Part shown: positions 7,608-36,875 of the stretch, in pieces
How positions within the stretch are numbered: the first letter of the stretch is position 1
Layout: each line of letters starts with the position of its first letter
Virus record (IMG/VR): IMGVR_UViG_2700989507_000031
Length of the DNA: 36,875 nt
Direction: 5' to 3' (one strand)
From: a virus
Lineage: Duplodnaviria > Heunggongvirae > Uroviricota > Caudoviricetes
Translations under genes and position numbers: made by a program
The notes under the pieces: generated by a model
The model's database searches: none
Seen by the model: only the letters and a program-made list of their open reading frames with translations
What the model was told of the DNA's origin: nothing

Positions 7608-8033
7608 ATGGCAGAAACTCAGATGAGCATGTTTGGTGGTGACAGTGAGCAACTGCACGCCCTTATCGACCGCCTTGATGACATCCCTGATGATGTTCTC
7701 AAAAAGAACTGGCCGCGGACCCTGTCAGAACTGGTTGAAGTCACCGGCGCAGAACTTCAGCGTCAGGGGATTGAGCCGGTACTGGCCGGTAAACTGGCAC
7801 GCAAGGTGGCTGCGGCTCAGGCAGCCTATATGGGCGGACGGGGTTATTACCTGCCGGTCGGGGAATCTCTCTTTGCCGAGCTGCGAAACAATGAGATATT
7901 TTCGCGCTGGGACCGGGGCGAGAAAATTGAATCCCTTCGCCGCCATTACCGGATGTCAGAAACCCAGATTTATACCGTCATACGTGAACAGCGCCGTCTG
8001 CATCTGGCAAGAACGCAACCGCCACTTTTCTGA
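7608..8033 (+). CDS. mor: Mor/C-family transcriptional activator
   Basis: 'GGRGYYLPVGESL' and C-terminal HTH-like 'EKIESLRRHYRMSETQIYTVIREQRR' parallel Mu Mor; SD 'ggagg'; lies between gemA and the lysis genes. Confidence 0.75.
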   Translation: MAETQMSMFGGDSEQLHALIDRLDDIPDDVLKKNWPRTLSELVEVTGAELQRQGIEPVLAGKLARKVAAAQAAYMGGRGYYLPVGESLFAELRNNEIFSRWDRGEKIESLRRHYRMSETQIYTVIREQRRLHLARTQPPLF

Positions 8034-8104
8034 TATTCCGCAAAGCCTGCCGCCTTTCCTTCACCGTTACGCTGACTCAGAGAACATCATGAGACAGCGT
8101 AACA

Positions 8105-15830: not shown

Positions 15831-16006
15831 TTGTTTAAGGTATGCAAATGCATTACCTTACCCCCTTCAGGCGCGTGTCGTGATTTTCTAACCTGAATTT
15901 AACGGGCTGTAAAATCTGCGTGAAGCGCCTTTGTATTTTTCCCCTGAAAGCACTTCCTGAAATCCCGCAAAACCCGCCCTGAAAATTCCCGGCCTATGCT
16001 GCCGGA
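15831..16006 (+). promoter_or_regulatory. Intergenic region upstream of the I gene with three CCTGAAA repeats; candidate late promoter
   Basis: 'cctgaaa' at 15943, 15956 and 15978; the only sizeable non-coding gap in the head operon, where Mu has its activator-dependent P_I. Confidence 0.4.
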
Positions 16007-31426: not shown

Positions 31427-31987
31427 ATGCTGATTGGCTATATACGCGTATCAACAAATGACCAGAACACCGGTTTACAAAGAAATGCGCTGGAATGTGC
31501 AGGATGTGAGCAGATTTTTGAAGACAAAATGAGTGGTAAAACGACACAGCGGCCGGGACTGAAGCGGGCACTGAAGAAACTAAAACCCGGTGACACGCTG
31601 ATGGTCTGGAAACTGGACAGGCTGGGGCGCAGTATGCGCCACCTTGTTGCGCTGACAGATGAATTACAGCAACAGGGGATAAATTTTCGTAGTCTTACTG
31701 ACAACATTGATACGTCAACCCCCATGGGGCGCTTCTTTTTTCACATAATGGGTGCGCTGGCAGAAATGGAGCGTGAATTAATTGTCGAACGGACACGGGC
31801 TGGTCTTGCAGCTGCCCGTGAAAGGGGACGAACCGGCGGCAGACCCCGCCGTCTCACGCAGGAACAATACGAGCAGGTCGGGCGTTTACTGGCCGGGGGT
31901 GTCAGTCGAAGACAGGTGGCACTTATTTTTGATATCGGTCTTTCAACCCTTTATCGTTATTATCCTGCGAGCGTTTCGGAAAAATAA
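31427..31987 (+). CDS. gin: Serine DNA invertase, Gin/Hin/Pin/Cin family
   Basis: N-terminal 'MLIGYIRVSTNDQN' with catalytic Ser; C-terminal HTH 'GVSRRQVALIFDIGLSTLYRY'; SD 'aaggaagg'; adjacent to the invertible segment. Confidence 0.95.
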   Translation: MLIGYIRVSTNDQNTGLQRNALECAGCEQIFEDKMSGKTTQRPGLKRALKKLKPGDTLMVWKLDRLGRSMRHLVALTDELQQQGINFRSLTDNIDTSTPMGRFFFHIMGALAEMERELIVERTRAGLAAARERGRTGGRPRRLTQEQYEQVGRLLAGGVSRRQVALIFDIGLSTLYRYYPASVSEK

Positions 31988-32086: not shown

Positions 32087-34126
32087 ATGACGTCCAAATG
32101 GGTTCAACTATCATCAATGCCCGGAAACTTTACTGTTAAAGTTTCCGGTGGTACAGCGGCATTTCTTGAGGCTCCCTTTCCTCCGGCCGAAACAAAAGGA
32201 GGAATGACATTTGCTGACTGTCTCATCAGTTTTAATACACGGGATTGCCTGTGGGTAAGGCCAGTATCCGGTGATCCGAGTGTGGAAATTACCGGAGCGG
32301 GTATTGGTGCGGTCATTCCGTTAAGTGCTGATGTTGCCGGTACTGCTGAACCGTCAGACTGGGATAATGCTGAAACACATACCCGTCCGTCAGGAAATGA
32401 AACTGCTTCCAGCTCCCCTTCCTGGTATTACGTGGTGGTTCTTGCTGGTCAGTCAAACGGTATGGCTTACGGTGAAGGTCTGCCACTGCCGGAGACATAT
32501 GACCGCCCCGAACCGCGTATTATGCAGTTAGCCCGTCGCAGTACAGTCACGCCGGGAGGTAAAGCCTGTCAGTATAACGACATCATTCTGGCCGACCACT
32601 GTCTGCATGATGTGCAGGATATGAGTGGAAAAAATCACCCGAAAGCGGATGTGGCTAAAGGGCAATATGGCACCGTGGGTCAGGGGCTTCACATTGCCAA
32701 AAAACTGCTGCCGTTTATTCCGGCAGATGCGGGGATTCTGCTGGTTCCCTGCTGCCGTGGTGGTTCTGCATTCACGGCGGGTGCTGACGGCACGTACAGT
32801 GACAGCACGGGTGCTTCAGAGGACTCAGCCCGCTGGGGTGTGGATAAGCCGCTGTATAAGGACTTAATCAGCCGGACAAAAGCGGCACTGGCGAAGAACC
32901 CGAAAAACCGCCTGCTTGCTGTGGTGTGGATGCAGGGCGAGTTTGATATTGATGCGAAGCCGACGGAGCATTCTGCGCTGTTTCTGGCGATGGTGGAAAA
33001 ATTCCGCGCAGACCTGGCTGAACAGGCGGAACAGTGTACCGGTGGCAGTGCTGCTGGCGTTCCGTGGATTTGTGGCGATACCACGTATTTCTGGAAACAG
33101 AAAAATGAACCAGCATACCAGGCAATCTATGGCGGCTACAAAAACAAAACAGATAAAAACATTCATTTCGTTCCATTAATAACAGATGAAAATGGCGTGA
33201 ATGTACCCACCAACAATCCGGCAGAAGACCCGGATATTGAATCCATTGGTTATTACGGCTCAACGTGGCGTAACAGTGCCGCTACCTGGACATCTGCGGA
33301 CCGGGCCAGCCATTTCAGTGCCTGGGCGCGCCGGGGTATTATTTCTGACCGTCTGGCCACGGCTGTTCTGACTCATGCAGGGCGAACCACAGTAAAAGCC
33401 GATGTTCCATCTTCTGAAACTGAAGCACCAGTGCCATCACCTTCAGAAACTGAAGCAGTAACCACAACACTGCTGTCTTACCGTGTCAGTGAGTCAGAAG
33501 GAAATCTGAAAGCCCAGGGCTGGGAGCCGGCTGGCGGTAAAGCTGAAATTATCAGTGATGCAGGAGGCACAGGTGGTAAGGCAATGAAACTGACCAAGGA
33601 AACAGGTAAATCATCCTGGTATCTGGATCATGATGCCGGTACTGGTGCTGAACTGCTGAAAAATGGTGGTTTAATCAGTTGTCGTTTTAAAGTACCTGGC
33701 GACCTGGTGGCAAACCAGTATGTCATGGCGCTTTACTGGCCGGTTTCCTCTCTGCCGCAGGGTGTCACCCTGACAGGGGATGCAGGGAATAATCTGCTGG
33801 CATCGTTCTACATCCAGACAGACGCAAAAGACCTGAATGTGATGTACCACAATGCAAAAGTGGCAACAAATAACCAGAAACTGGGAACCTTTGGTGCATT
33901 TGATAATGAATGGCATACGCTGGCCTTCCGTTTTGCAGGAAATAACAGCCTTCAGGTTATTCCGGTTATTGATGGTCAGGATGGTGCCGCGTTTACCCTG
34001 ACGCAGTCACCAGTAGGAACTTTCCCGGTGGACAAACTCCGCGTAACGGATATCACCAAAAATGCAACTTACCCGGTGCTGATTGACAGCATTGTGGTGG
34101 AAGTGAAAAAAGCGGTAACAGAATAA
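32087..34126 (+). CDS. Multi-domain SGNH/SASA-like carbohydrate esterase (N-terminal ~110-aa domain, esterase core, S/T/E/P linker, C-terminal beta-sandwich-like domain)
   Basis: Esterase block 'YYVVVLAGQSNGMAYGEG' (GQSN motif); linker 'SSETEAPVPSPSETEAVTTT'; no N-terminal signal peptide; SD-like sequence upstream. Confidence 0.6.
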   Translation: MTSKWVQLSSMPGNFTVKVSGGTAAFLEAPFPPAETKGGMTFADCLISFNTRDCLWVRPVSGDPSVEITGAGIGAVIPLSADVAGTAEPSDWDNAETHTRPSGNETASSSPSWYYVVVLAGQSNGMAYGEGLPLPETYDRPEPRIMQLARRSTVTPGGKACQYNDIILADHCLHDVQDMSGKNHPKADVAKGQYGTVGQGLHIAKKLLPFIPADAGILLVPCCRGGSAFTAGADGTYSDSTGASEDSARWGVDKPLYKDLISRTKAALAKNPKNRLLAVVWMQGEFDIDAKPTEHSALFLAMVEKFRADLAEQAEQCTGGSAAGVPWICGDTTYFWKQKNEPAYQAIYGGYKNKTDKNIHFVPLITDENGVNVPTNNPAEDPDIESIGYYGSTWRNSAATWTSADRASHFSAWARRGIISDRLATAVLTHAGRTTVKADVPSSETEAPVPSPSETEAVTTTLLSYRVSESEGNLKAQGWEPAGGKAEIISDAGGTGGKAMKLTKETGKSSWYLDHDAGTGAELLKNGGLISCRFKVPGDLVANQYVMALYWPVSSLPQGVTLTGDAGNNLLASFYIQTDAKDLNVMYHNAKVATNNQKLGTFGAFDNEWHTLAFRFAGNNSLQVIPVIDGQDGAAFTLTQSPVGTFPVDKLRVTDITKNATYPVLIDSIVVEVKKAVTE

Positions 34127-34131
34127 AAAAA

Positions 34132-34160
34132 TCCCGCCGGTCATGATATGGCTGGCGGGA
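34132..34160. terminator. Hairpin after the esterase gene, flanked upstream by an A-run
   Basis: 'tcccgcc...ggcggga' stem with 15-nt loop. The A-tract lies 5' on the + strand, so it would act as a U-tract only for minus-strand transcription. Confidence 0.3.
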
Positions 34161-34272
34161 GCTACCTAACCCATAAAGGAAAATAAAAATACTCCCGAAG
34201 GAGTGGTTATCAGTCGCTTCGATGTTTTTACCCGATAACGAATTATGTAGTCAATATCAAAGGTAAGGTTAT

Positions 34273-34455
34273 ATGACATTCGTTCATACAATGCTGCTTT
34301 ATTTCTGCGCTGTGGTCAGTGCGTTATATCTGGTGAGCGGCGGTTATAAGGTCATCAGAAATTATATTCGCCGTAAAATTGATGATGCGGCAGCTGAAAA
34401 ACTCAGTAAAACAGCACAGGCACCGTCATCCCCAAACGACCCGACCCCGCTCTGA
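34273..34455 (+). CDS. Small membrane protein (60 aa)
   Basis: N-terminal TM 'MLLYFCAVVSALYLVSGG', then a charged tail. Confidence 0.4.
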   Translation: MTFVHTMLLYFCAVVSALYLVSGGYKVIRNYIRRKIDDAAAEKLSKTAQAPSSPNDPTPL

Positions 34456-34490
34456 TAACGGGGCAATATACCTGCAAAAGGAGAATATTC

Positions 34491-34736
34491 ATGCCAGAGA
34501 TTAAAGGCACGGTTACTGAAGAGCTTGTCAAACAGGCACTTTATTCTGAAGAAGTGAACCGCGTGCTGAAGGCGCAGGTTCGCAAGGATTTTGAGGCACA
34601 AATCGACGCATATGTTGATGAAGTGCTGGCCCGAATGGTTGGTCGTTCTCCGGCTGAAAACAGCACGGAAAATGAGCCTCAACCAGTAGAGCAACCAGAG
34701 CCGGTTCAGCCCGGAACTGACAGTGCCATGATGTAA
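34491..34736 (+). CDS. Small acidic hypothetical protein (81 aa)
   Basis: Strong SD 'aaaggagaa' 6 nt before ATG. Confidence 0.5.
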   Translation: MPEIKGTVTEELVKQALYSEEVNRVLKAQVRKDFEAQIDAYVDEVLARMVGRSPAENSTENEPQPVEQPEPVQPGTDSAMM

Positions 34737-34810
34737 CAATACAAACCGACAGCTTCTCCTGTCGGTTTGATTTTCATGGGCGATGTATATACCAGTCAGA
34801 GGAAATAATC

Positions 34811-35011
34811 ATGGACAAGAACAAAAAACAGCCCGATACCAAAGGTCTGGAAATATTAAGCGCAGAAATTATCAATGCGCTACGTTCAGGACTTGATGAA
34901 AATACATTACAGGATCGAAACTTCACCACTGCAATGTGGATAGCGATGCAGATCCTGTGTACCCCAAGATGCGCTATTTTTGCGGTTCGTGAGGGTCAGT
35001 TGACTCGCTGA
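34811..35011 (+). CDS. Small hypothetical protein (66 aa)
   Basis: SD 'gagga' before ATG; 3' end overlaps the convergent minus-strand gene. Confidence 0.45.
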   Translation: MDKNKKQPDTKGLEILSAEIINALRSGLDENTLQDRNFTTAMWIAMQILCTPRCAIFAVREGQLTR

Positions 35012-35180
35012 TTGCCCGAATTACATCAGAAAAGCACGCGTTCCATAATTGCATAGCTGATGAATCACCAGCTGTATGAAAAGAGGTAAAGACACAACTG
35101 GTGGATGTCATTGCTGCAATTGTGATATCAGCTGCAATTCGCGCAGCCTGTAACTTTTGGTCGGTGGTCAGTTTATCCAT
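34974..35180 (-). CDS. Small hypothetical protein (68 aa from ATG 35180)
   Basis: Minus-strand SD 'aggaga' immediately upstream of the second in-frame ATG (35180); the track ORF starts 8 codons earlier at 35204. Confidence 0.45.
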   Translation of the reverse strand: MDKLTTDQKLQAARIAADITIAAMTSTSCVFTSFHTAGDSSAMQLWNACFSDVIRAISESTDPHEPQK

Positions 35181-35255
35181 TTTCTCCTGCCTGAACAGAT
35201 GCATCTCTGCTTTACAGGAGACCGGGGAATATCATAGGATACACCACGAGCTCAG

Positions 35256-35413
35256 AGTGAAGCATTGATGCAGTTTTTTACAGATTGACCCAGAATAGTT
35301 CGCGCTATCTGAGTCGCCATTTATGTAGTCCCGAAGTAAAGCATTGATGCAAACTTGTCTAAATCGGCCCGGAATAGTTCACGCTATCTGGGTCGTCCTT
35401 TATGCATGTAGTA
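35256..35413. repeat. Two tandem imperfect direct repeats of ~79 bp
   Basis: Unit 1 (35256-35334) and unit 2 (35335-35413) share 'a[g/a]aagcattgatgca' and 'cc[a/g]gaatagttc[g/a]cgctatctg[a/g]gtcg'. Confidence 0.8.
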
Positions 35414-35447
35414 TCCCGTTGATTTGAAACACACTATACGTACTTGC

Positions 35448-35625
35448 GATCCTACCTTCACTGGATAAAAAGTCAATAAAATGATCATTTTATGATCGTT
35501 TTCACCACCTAACTCTTCGTTTTCTTTAAGTAAATAATCACCGTCCTGAATCATTGTTGATGACTTTTAAATCTATTTGTTGTATCAATTAAACAAATCG
35601 AATCGATCGTTTTTGTCGATCGATT
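35448..35625 (+). promoter_or_regulatory. AT-rich control region with five GATC sites upstream of com
   Basis: GATC at 35448, 35483, 35494, 35605 and 35618. Direct repeat 'atgatcatttt/atgatcgtttt'; palindromic pair 'aatcgatcg' (35601-35609) and 'cgatcgatt' (35617-35625). Confidence 0.45.
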
Positions 35626-35668
35626 GCATGAGAAAGGCATCAACAACAAAGCAGGAGGTTATGCGGCC

Positions 35669-35854
35669 ATGTATCGAAACATACGGTGCCGACACTGCAA
35701 TAAGCTACTGGCACGGGCCAGTTTCAGTTATCTGGAAGTAAAATGTCCGCGCTGTAAAACCCTCAATCAAATCACATCTCAGAGCGCCACAGAGCACCCC
35801 ACATACACAAGGAAATCCTGCCGTGGGGAACAAGAAACATTACTTTCAGTCTGA
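35669..35854 (+). CDS. com: Com-like zinc-finger translational regulator
   Basis: 'MYRNIRCRHCNKLLARASFSYLEVKCPRCKTL' parallels Mu Com 'IRCKNCNKLL...IRCPRCK' as recalled; SD 'aggagg' 10 nt before ATG; 3' end overlaps the downstream gene by 32 nt, as com overlaps mom in Mu. Confidence 0.7.
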   Translation: MYRNIRCRHCNKLLARASFSYLEVKCPRCKTLNQITSQSATEHPTYTRKSCRGEQETLLSV

Positions 35855-36875
35855 TAAGTCACTAACCTATGGTTCAGTATGCAGTGGTATTGAAGCTGCG
35901 ACAGTAGCCTGGAGCAATCTTGGCTGGAAAGCCAGATGGTTCAGTGAAATAGAGGACTTCCCGTCAACACTTCTTTCATATCGCTGGCCCCATATACCAA
36001 ATCTTGGTGATATGGCTTTGCTTGCGCCTCGTATCAGGGATGGGCTTATTGAAGCACCAGATATTCTTGTAGGTGGAACTCCGTGTCAGGCATTCAGTAT
36101 GTCAGGCAAACGAAAAGGCCTTTCAGATCCACGGGGGCAGTTAACACTGTCTTTTGTTGAACTGGCGAATCAGATAGATACCGTTCGGGCATCGCTCAAT
36201 AAATCCCCCTCAATAATCGTATGGGAAAACGTCACAGGAGTTTTAAGTAGCCATGACAATGCATTCGGTCATTTTCTTGGTGCGCTGGCCGGAGCAGGTT
36301 GCGCATTACAGCCAGCAAGGAAAAGATGGGCAAACGCTGGTGTTGTGTCTGGACCATCGCGTATCGTCGCCTGGCGAGTACTTGATGCCCAATATTTCGG
36401 AGTCGCCCAGGCTCGCAGAAGAGTGTTTGTTGTGGCAAGTGCTGGAAAAAGGCTCGATCCCGGAAAGGTATTATTTGAGTTCCCGCCTGTGTCGCAGGGC
36501 GATAAAAACTATTATGGAAAGAAGAAAAAATCCGAATCCCTTCTTGATCAAGGCATTGAAGGAAAATTGCACCGATATTGCCTTGAAGCATTGCCAAAAC
36601 GAACAGGCACAGTAATAGCTGGCTATAACGGAACAACTAACCAGGACATGACTATGTCTGGTGGGCTCATAGTTGAAAGAGCACCATATTCAAGGGTTCG
36701 TAGGTTGACGCCAACCGAATGCGAGAGGCTACAAGGTTTTCCCGATGGATATACAGATATTCCATGGAAAAATTCATCTCCAGCTCATCGTTATAAGGCC
36801 ATTGGAAATTCAATGCCTGTACCGGTCATGAAATGGATTGGTCGAAGAATACAGGAAGCGTTAAACGAAGTTTAA
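35823..36875 (+). CDS. DNA (cytosine-5) methyltransferase
   Basis: Motif I-like 'YGSVCSGIEAA', catalytic PCQ motif 'GGTPCQAFSMSGK', motif VI 'IIVWENVTGVL'; stop TAA ends the window. GTG start inferred from the track. Confidence 0.85.
   Translation: MGNKKHYFQSDKSLTYGSVCSGIEAATVAWSNLGWKARWFSEIEDFPSTLLSYRWPHIPNLGDMALLAPRIRDGLIEAPDILVGGTPCQAFSMSGKRKGLSDPRGQLTLSFVELANQIDTVRASLNKSPSIIVWENVTGVLSSHDNAFGHFLGALAGAGCALQPARKRWANAGVVSGPSRIVAWRVLDAQYFGVAQARRRVFVVASAGKRLDPGKVLFEFPPVSQGDKNYYGKKKKSESLLDQGIEGKLHRYCLEALPKRTGTVIAGYNGTTNQDMTMSGGLIVERAPYSRVRRLTPTECERLQGFPDGYTDIPWKNSSPAHRYKAIGNSMPVPVMKWIGRRIQEALNEV

Follow-up and report, generated by a model that had tools for sequence, protein, structure and literature searches.

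The locus upstream of com in this Mu-like prophage raises the question of whether the GATC sites clustered there make transcription of com, and of the DNA methyltransferase gene that follows it, sensitive to Dam methylation as in the mom region of phage Mu, and which of the sites would take part. The window, i.e. the whole stretch of 36,875 nt that was analyzed, has GATC sites at positions 35448, 35483, 35494, 35605 and 35618. The original prediction treated these five sites as one methylation-sensitive unit in AT-rich DNA just upstream of com, with a direct repeat and a palindromic pair and with a placement like that in Mu. The sites are found where they were claimed to be, the region is AT-rich (30.9% GC versus 53.7% for the window), and both the palindrome and the repeat, which is an 11-bp tandem direct repeat ATGATCATTTT/ATGATCGTTTT at positions 35481–35502, are present. 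The sequence at positions 35575–35620, which includes only the two com-proximal sites, is probably a Dam-methylation-sensitive OxyR operator of the com-methyltransferase operon. Positions of the features are in Table 1.

The com-methyltransferase cassette of the prophage

The whole window is a complete Mu-like prophage, and the “inserted Mu-like phage” of two Stx-phage records displays 97% identity to it. The phage genes include a Mu-type GemA, one Mor/C homologue, lysis, head and tail genes, and Gin. At the 3′ end of the phage, com is followed by an overlapping gene for a C5 cytosine methyltransferase. The Com aa sequence is 52% identical to Mu Com. The Mor/C-family activator is encoded at positions 7608–8033 (Pfam Mor, E = 2.8e-32), displays 39% identity to Mu C, and has gemA and lys as its direct neighbours on either side; in Mu, Mor and C are two separate proteins.

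In com-mom relatives the homology to the window stops at position 35837, which is 15 nt into the methyltransferase open reading frame (junction 35837/35838). This break leaves the methyltransferase initiation region intact. Exchange of mom for the C5 methyltransferase gene retains com, the start-codon hairpin and the first five codons (MGNKK versus MGNRK). An equivalent start-codon stem is predicted in Mu mom, in one com-mom relative and in one P2-like com-methyltransferase cassette, with individual z-scores that are weak. The locus has the parts of a Mu com-mom type cassette, i.e. a Com zinc ribbon and an overlapping modification gene with a hairpin over its start, and binding of Com to the RNA is predicted. 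Relatives that have the com-proximal region in common with the window are found in 233 of the 5426 complete E. coli genomes. Only 10 of these 233 cassette-bearing genomes have the methyltransferase gene and the remainder have mom.

Approximately 3.6 kb of cargo is located between gin (31427–31969) and com, at positions 32087–35011, and has no counterpart in Mu. It encodes a 679 aa DUF6645 protein with a SASA/sialate-O-acetylesterase domain, DUF1378, DUF826 and small open reading frames. Palindromes are strongly avoided across the whole window, which suggests restriction-site avoidance. Observed versus Markov-expected counts are 0 versus 17 for TCCGGA, 0 versus 12.7 for CTGCAG, 0 versus 8 for GGATCC, 4 versus 35 for GCCGGC, 2 versus 17.5 for GGCGCC and 1 versus 14 for CCCGGG; CTAG is absent (count 0, no Markov expectation computed).

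Table 1. Positions of features in the com region of the window.
Feature	Position	Strand	Evidence and remarks
Distal GATC sites (35448, 35483, 35494) around a sigma-70-like promoter	35448–35497	−	Promoter scan; outside the putative com operator
Putative OxyR half-site 1, ATTTGTTGTATCAAT	35575–35589	+	7/10 match to ATAGnTnnnAnCTAT; promoter-distal; without GATC
Spacer between half-sites, 16 bp	35590–35605		Same length in all com cassettes examined including Mu; sequence varies
Perfect 9-bp inverted repeat, AATCGATCG-N7-CGATCGATT	35601–35625		Encloses half-site 2
Putative OxyR half-site 2, ATCGTTTTTGTCGAT	35606–35620	+	7/10 match to consensus; Dam sites 35605–35608 and 35618–35621
Candidate weak −10 sequences	35629–35643	+	TGAGAA/GAGAAA at 35629–35635, CATCAA at 35638–35643
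Shine-Dalgarno sequence of com, AGGAGG	35653–35658	+	Read from sequence; start codon ATG 35669 of com 10 nt downstream
com	35669–35854	+	61 aa zinc ribbon; Pfam PF10122 Zn_ribbon_Com, E = 5.8e-13; PHROG ‘gpCom control of modification’
Predicted hairpin CCCCAC (35797–35802)/GUGGGG (35823–35828)	35797–35828	+	Would sequester the methyltransferase GUG start; putative Com-responsive translation initiation region
C5 cytosine DNA methyltransferase	35823–36875	+	Pfam PF00145, E = 1.6e-42; position of mom in relatives

The proximal GATC pair and the putative OxyR operator

The five sites form the densest GATC cluster of the window, and this is the only place in it with five sites in 178 bp, with GATC being mildly depleted window-wide (123 sites versus 148 ± 11 in shuffled sequences). 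The Poisson probability is 1e-4 to 3e-4 if the region is taken as pre-specified. However, when 123 sites are placed randomly and the whole window is scanned, such a cluster appears in 24% of trials (P about 0.24), so that the GATC count by itself carries little weight. What is informative is the GATC pair with its 13-bp spacing. A pair of this type (GATC-N9-GATC) is found once in the ~37 kb window and once in the Mu genome, where it is at mom. The true intergenic stretch is at positions 35555–35668 (114 bp) and holds the proximal two GATCs only; the chance of a 13-bp-spaced pair within it is about 1e-3. The pair is part of GATCGTTTTTGTCGATC at positions 35605–35621 and displays the architecture GATCG-N7-CGATC, which is found nowhere else in the window.

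The window was scanned for two half-sites resembling the OxyR consensus ATAGnTnnnAnCTAT at a distance of 16–17 bp, i.e. the spacing of reduced OxyR. This spacing was taken from an alignment of known sites in which the second half-site is upstream; the upstream half-site is ATAG-N7-CGAT in Mu, agn43 and P2-like cassettes. Positions 35575–35620 give the window maximum, 14/20, a score reached at 2 of 73,659 positions (the other is 4636). In control scans the known site ranks first in the whole Mu genome (14/20, 16-bp spacing), in the agn43 region (16/20) and in the P22 gtr region (18/20). Shuffling of the 114-bp intergenic region gives P = 0.016 for the OxyR score; each half-site is only a 7/10 match to a degenerate consensus which is AT-rich like the region. 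Citrobacter-type versions of half-site 1 match the consensus at 8/10. A scan with a 7-bp spacing, the classic oxidised form, gave several overlapping matches at positions 35553–35629, but these are in the wrong register and known sites show 16–17 bp.

The stretch has two half-sites that are separated by a 16-bp spacer, and one half-site carries the two GATCs in its ATCG/CGAT arms at a distance of 13 bp. It is in the promoter/leader region of com, 48 bp before the ATG, and is conserved with the gene. E. coli has Dam and OxyR. Of the 5426 complete E. coli genomes, 233 (about 4%) carry the identical operator sequence, and the hosts therefore have both proteins.

The homology, geometry, architecture and conservation of the stretch can be read directly from the sequences. 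One sub-lineage (L004, L039) has another gene as its left neighbour, and its homology to the window begins only at about position 35574. Citrobacter braakii (L008) also has an unrelated left flank, and there the shared block begins at the same point. The block from ~35575 is the only upstream sequence common to com cassettes with three unrelated left neighbours. It reads ATT(t/g)GTT(g/a)TAT..ATTAAA.AAATC...CGATCGTTTTT(g/a)TCGATCGAT and includes the proximal GATC pair only; the start of cross-lineage conservation coincides with the start of half-site 1. Half-site 2 is invariant in every member of the cassette lineage read and its flanks vary. In every member of the window lineage read, 51 bp separate the last GATC from the com ATG. 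P2-like cassettes display the same 51 bp although their intervening sequence is unrelated, and the distance is 52 bp for Citrobacter and 78 bp for Mu.

In the Mu mom region the sequence is cGATCgaatcaattaaatcGATCggtaatacaGATCgatta; its GATCs are spaced by 18 and 13 bp and its core has the form AATCGATCG-N7-(A/C)GATCGATT. The window has in common with Mu mom GATC II/III the 13-bp GATC spacing, 19 of 25 core positions, the 16-bp half-site spacing and the OxyR score of 14/20. Also as in Mu, com is downstream, a hairpin is predicted over the start codon of the next gene, and the phage encodes a C homologue. Unlike Mu, there are two GATCs instead of three and one Mor/C protein instead of two, the operator is 27 bp closer to com, and a C5 cytosine methyltransferase gene takes the place of mom as the cargo. 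The three GATCs with 18/13 spacing of Mu Pmom are thus represented by the 13-bp pair only. GATC I is present in Mu, agn43 and the P2-like cassettes and is absent from window half-site 1, where its position reads differently.

The agn43 (flu) core TATCGATCGTTTATATCGATCGATA is identical to the window at 21 of 25 positions and its GATC II/III display the same architecture. In agn43 a single OxyR site acts as a repressor site from which OxyR is excluded by methylation (PMC2909390). Unlike the window, agn43 has three GATCs, a 17-bp half-site spacing and a long leader; its operator is at or just after the transcription start, as judged from the annotated IsrC 5′ end.

In P22 gtr the GATCG-N7-CGATC unit is found in both GATC-bearing half-sites, OxyR(A) and OxyR(C), which read GATCGGTAACAACGATC and GATCGCTTGTATCGATC, and the half-site spacing is also 17 bp. 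Each 13-bp GATC pair of gtr is within one OxyR dimer half-site (consensus ATAGxTxxxAxCTAT), OxyR binds to it, and Dam methylation abolishes binding, as shown by EMSA (PMC2909390). GATC3 and GATC4 are at −46 and −33, the −10 sequence TACACT is 21–26 bp past GATC4 and the start is 33 bp past GATC4 (PMC2909390). The sequence GATCGTTTATATCGATC has been listed as an OxyR site (PMC7708049). The window resembles gtr OxyR(C) in that a GATCG-N7-CGATC half-site is directly upstream of a short promoter, with a candidate −10 at offset 20–25. However the three half-sites and two GATC pairs of gtr allow alternative AB/BC binding and switching, and the window has one full site and one pair.

The P2-like com-methyltransferase cassettes of E. 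coli and Salmonella have Com, an overlapping DNA methyltransferase gene, a start-codon hairpin and an operator at the same 51-bp distance from the com ATG. Unlike the window they display a GATC triad with the 18/13 spacing of Mu, a good extended −10 sequence TGtTATCAT right after GATC III, and a methyltransferase of the N6/N4 type. These cassettes (L005 2400–2490, L006 2400–2490, L009, L095) adjoin raiA and have no TGT-N12-ACA Ogr box. The P2-like cassette may be expressed from the prophage under Dam/OxyR control. An inverted repeat of the window at positions 35572–35601 (TGT-N12-ACA) was considered as a P2 Ogr-type box and rejected, since the P2-like cassettes are without it and its position coincides with that of OxyR half-site 1.

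By these comparisons the window operator appears to be a mom-type Dam/OxyR operator in compact form, nearest to agn43 in sequence and to gtr OxyR(C) in geometry. Every component is known. What is new, modestly, is the presence of two GATCs rather than three, the absence of a Mu-type C site and the exchanged cargo gene.

The motif ATCGATCG-N7-CGATCGAT is found in 59 IMG/VR contigs and approximately 36 of these are com cassettes (com-mom, com-C5 methyltransferase and com-N-methyltransferase). Eleven AT-rich IMG/VR contigs (L049, L054, L062, L067, L068, L084, L087, L089, L091, L093, L097) have the same perfect palindrome together with a third GATC ~18–19 bp off. The genes next to the palindrome in these contigs are unrelated to com, e.g. 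a probable LPS glycosyltransferase and a putative tail-fibre open reading frame, as read from the sequence. The eleven contigs likely carry further OxyR/Dam-controlled prophage genes.

Promoter position and proposed regulation

The operator ends 48 bp before the com ATG, compared with 75 bp in Mu, and a leader together with a C site at −57 to −28 would not fit into this space. The additional 27 bp in Mu comprise the C-binding dyad (TTAT-N6-ATAA) and the −35 region, without counterpart in the window (PMC4461284). At Mu Pmom the C dyad is near −43.5, between the OxyR site and the −10; no counterpart of the dyad was found between the window operator and the com ATG. The proposal of a Mu-like placement is thus not borne out, with 51 bp from GATC III to the com ATG here versus 78 bp in Mu, where the C site and promoter are in between. 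Like its counterparts in gtr and agn43, the operator would have to overlap the core promoter or be located after it.

A consensus promoter scan did not detect a + strand promoter between the operator and com, and no convincing −10 or −35 is seen there. Relatives have better −10 sequences, which are at offset 11–16 from GATC III (TATACT in L008 and the extended −10 TGtTATCAT in L005 and L009) or at offset 20–25 (TATCAA in L004 and TATCAT in L036). We infer a com transcription start at about positions 35642–35650. Either candidate −10 puts the proximal GATCs between about −46 and −21, and thus OxyR would overlap the −35/spacer as in gtr, in contrast to the Mu arrangement with OxyR upstream of an activator. 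A Mu Pmom-like promoter at positions 35535–35575 (ATAATCACC ... TAAATC) was rejected; it is in the divergent open reading frame and is not conserved in L004 or L008. A search of the literature on the methylome or transcription starts of the com region of this prophage found nothing specific.

A 20-bp box, GAWATYCCGCAAARCCYGCC, is common to the lys and I promoters of the phage, at positions 8032–8051 and 15959–15978. It is homologous to the CCCGCACCT match of Mu Plys/PI. A search with the box matched the lys and I promoters only, with none upstream of com, and the looser GAAAyCC core, which includes the P promoter, also had no match upstream of com.

The binding of OxyR, its sensitivity to methylation, the location of the promoter and the direction of regulation are inferred in the following scheme. 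Host OxyR would bind the operator when the GATC pair is unmethylated, and perhaps also when it is hemimethylated. Since the operator ends so near to the com ATG, bound OxyR would cover the −35/spacer of the weak com promoter or sit just downstream of the start, and transcription would be blocked. Full Dam methylation of the sites at 35605 and 35618 would exclude OxyR and permit transcription. Translation of the methyltransferase would then be gated by Com via the hairpin over the GUG start.

The palindrome might instead be bound by a phage protein, e.g. a dimeric Mor/C-like activator at a dyad overlapping the −35, with Dam methylation being incidental or modulating that protein. Proteins of the Mor/C family bind dyad-symmetric sites that overlap the −35 (PMC4461284). 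The centre of the palindrome would be at about −29 to −37 from the inferred start sites, and no other activator site was found upstream of com. However a palindrome of the same type is present in agn43 and gtr, which are without a phage protein of this kind, and in the P2-like cassettes, where the one flank read (L006) encodes Ogr/Delta and not Mor/C. The lys and I promoters of the window phage carry a quite different box, and the homologous sequence in Mu is the OxyR site, with the C site elsewhere. The presence of the GATCG-N7-CGATC unit in agn43, gtr and P2-like prophages thus renders the activator-site reading distinctly unlikely.

If the stretch is an OxyR operator, it is conceivable but rather unlikely that it functions in lysogens as a heritable ON/OFF switch of the agn43 type and not just as a late-lytic safeguard, and that the prophage methyltransferase is phase-variable. 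An operator that overlaps the core promoter, together with the lack of a recognisable activator box, suggests that it may work in this way. Replication would be followed by competition between Dam and OxyR for the sites at 35605 and 35618. Phase variation of the gtr type does not fit the window, which has a single GATC pair and no second 13-bp pair.

Were such a switch to exist, the second DNA-modification enzyme of the prophage would be phase-variable, i.e. the C5 methyltransferase here, Mom in most relatives and an N-methyltransferase in the P2-like cassettes. Many of the carrier genomes are those of Shiga-toxin-producing strains (STEC, including O157:H7), and an epigenetic cascade could give rise to STEC subpopulations with different methylomes and restriction sensitivity. 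The OxyR operator, com and the Com-responsive start would represent a portable three-layer module into which at least three unrelated modification enzymes have been recruited.

The OxyR operator reading would extend the Dam/OxyR paradigm of Mu mom to prophages of a family that about 4% of complete E. coli genomes carry, with one control module driving Mom, a C5 methyltransferase or an N-methyltransferase. The conserved portable part would be the 46-bp OxyR operator, with 51 bp from the last GATC to the com ATG, and not the operator-plus-C-site of Mu. The locus offers a testable case of whether prophage DNA-modification genes are epigenetically bistable in lysogens.

The distal GATC sites and the divergent unit

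The promoter scan places a minus-strand promoter among the distal GATCs, with TTGACT at positions 35476–35471, a 16-bp spacer and TAGGAT at positions 35454–35449. The distal GATCs are within a minus-strand open reading frame at 35384–35554, which is the truncated 5′ part of a phrog_26524 open reading frame (E = 2e-51). Strain FRIK2533 has an intact phrog_26524 open reading frame of 154 aa; annotations elsewhere give it as frameshifted. The diverged viral contig L044 has a com and a methyltransferase that are 76% and 69% identical to those of the window, and in it the −35, the −10 and two of the three distal GATCs are conserved islands and the third GATC is absent. The promoter there reads TTGACT-N16-TAAGATC. 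The distal GATCs at 35483 and 35494 are 11 bp apart, are located 111 bp from the proximal pair and do not match an OxyR half-site.

The distal GATCs are missing from com cassettes with other left neighbours and are located inside the divergent open reading frame and its promoter; thus the five sites are not one unit, and the distal three appear to belong to a separate, divergently transcribed unit and not to the com operator. Of the region that was described as upstream of com, 35555–35668 is intergenic, but 35384–35554 is the 5′ part of the divergent open reading frame. The Dam/OxyR idea of the original prediction finds support for the proximal pair, in its homology to Mu mom GATC II/III and its gtr/agn43 type architecture, and does not extend to the distal three sites. 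Counting of GATC sites can merge unrelated elements, which is a caution for annotation.

It could still be argued that all five GATCs are one methylation-sensitive region upstream of a Mu-type C-activated late promoter, with OxyR upstream of the activator site. The density of the cluster, the Mor/C-family activator with its identity to Mu C, and the Mu-like com and translational hairpin are consistent with such an arrangement. However, in addition to the absence of the distal sites from other cassettes and their location in another gene, the cluster is non-significant after scan correction, the distance from the operator to com leaves too little room for a C site and leader, and the lys/I late-promoter box is not found upstream of com. 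This arrangement is very unlikely.

There is next to no likelihood that the palindrome is a nucleic-acid hairpin, e.g. a minus-strand intrinsic terminator, or that the GATC pair is due to chance: a terminator scan does flag the minus strand at 35625–35601 with the tail CGATTTGTTT, and the sequence is stable as single-stranded DNA (−8.2 kcal/mol, z −2.6), but the GATC spacing is conserved across cassettes and the stem is not (the P2-like version folds at only −3.3 kcal/mol), Mu is without the T-tail, there is no U-run after the hairpin on the + strand, and a chance pair is countered by its low probability and by an invariant sequence between flanks that vary.

With respect to the divergent unit itself, a GATC overlaps the −10 of the minus-strand promoter and one or two GATCs are just upstream of the −35, an arrangement reminiscent of the IS10 transposase promoter. 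The promoter would give a leader of ~260 nt before a small open reading frame at positions 34974–35204 (minus strand), which has a good Shine-Dalgarno sequence, AGGAG, and an ATG at ~35180. Relatives carry a different small zinc-ribbon open reading frame at this position. The long phrog_26524 open reading frame may not be the real product of the minus-strand promoter.

An Rfam search of positions 34700–35900 gave no credible family. The leftward-transcribed region has a 79-bp tandem duplication at 35256–35325/35335–35404 (70 nt aligned, 79% identity). It is present as a single copy in four of the five relatives with this left context (L002, L036, L037, L038), and both copies are found in STEC299 (L003). 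Each copy holds a hairpin-like sequence CCCAGAATAG...CTATCTGGG, with no Rfam match. The operator is bracketed by a 24-nt inverted repeat at positions 35544–35567/35633–35656 (79% complementary), which is not conserved in L004 and L008. Because of this inverted repeat the divergent translation-start regions mirror each other (AAAG[G/T]CATCAACAA...CAGGA).
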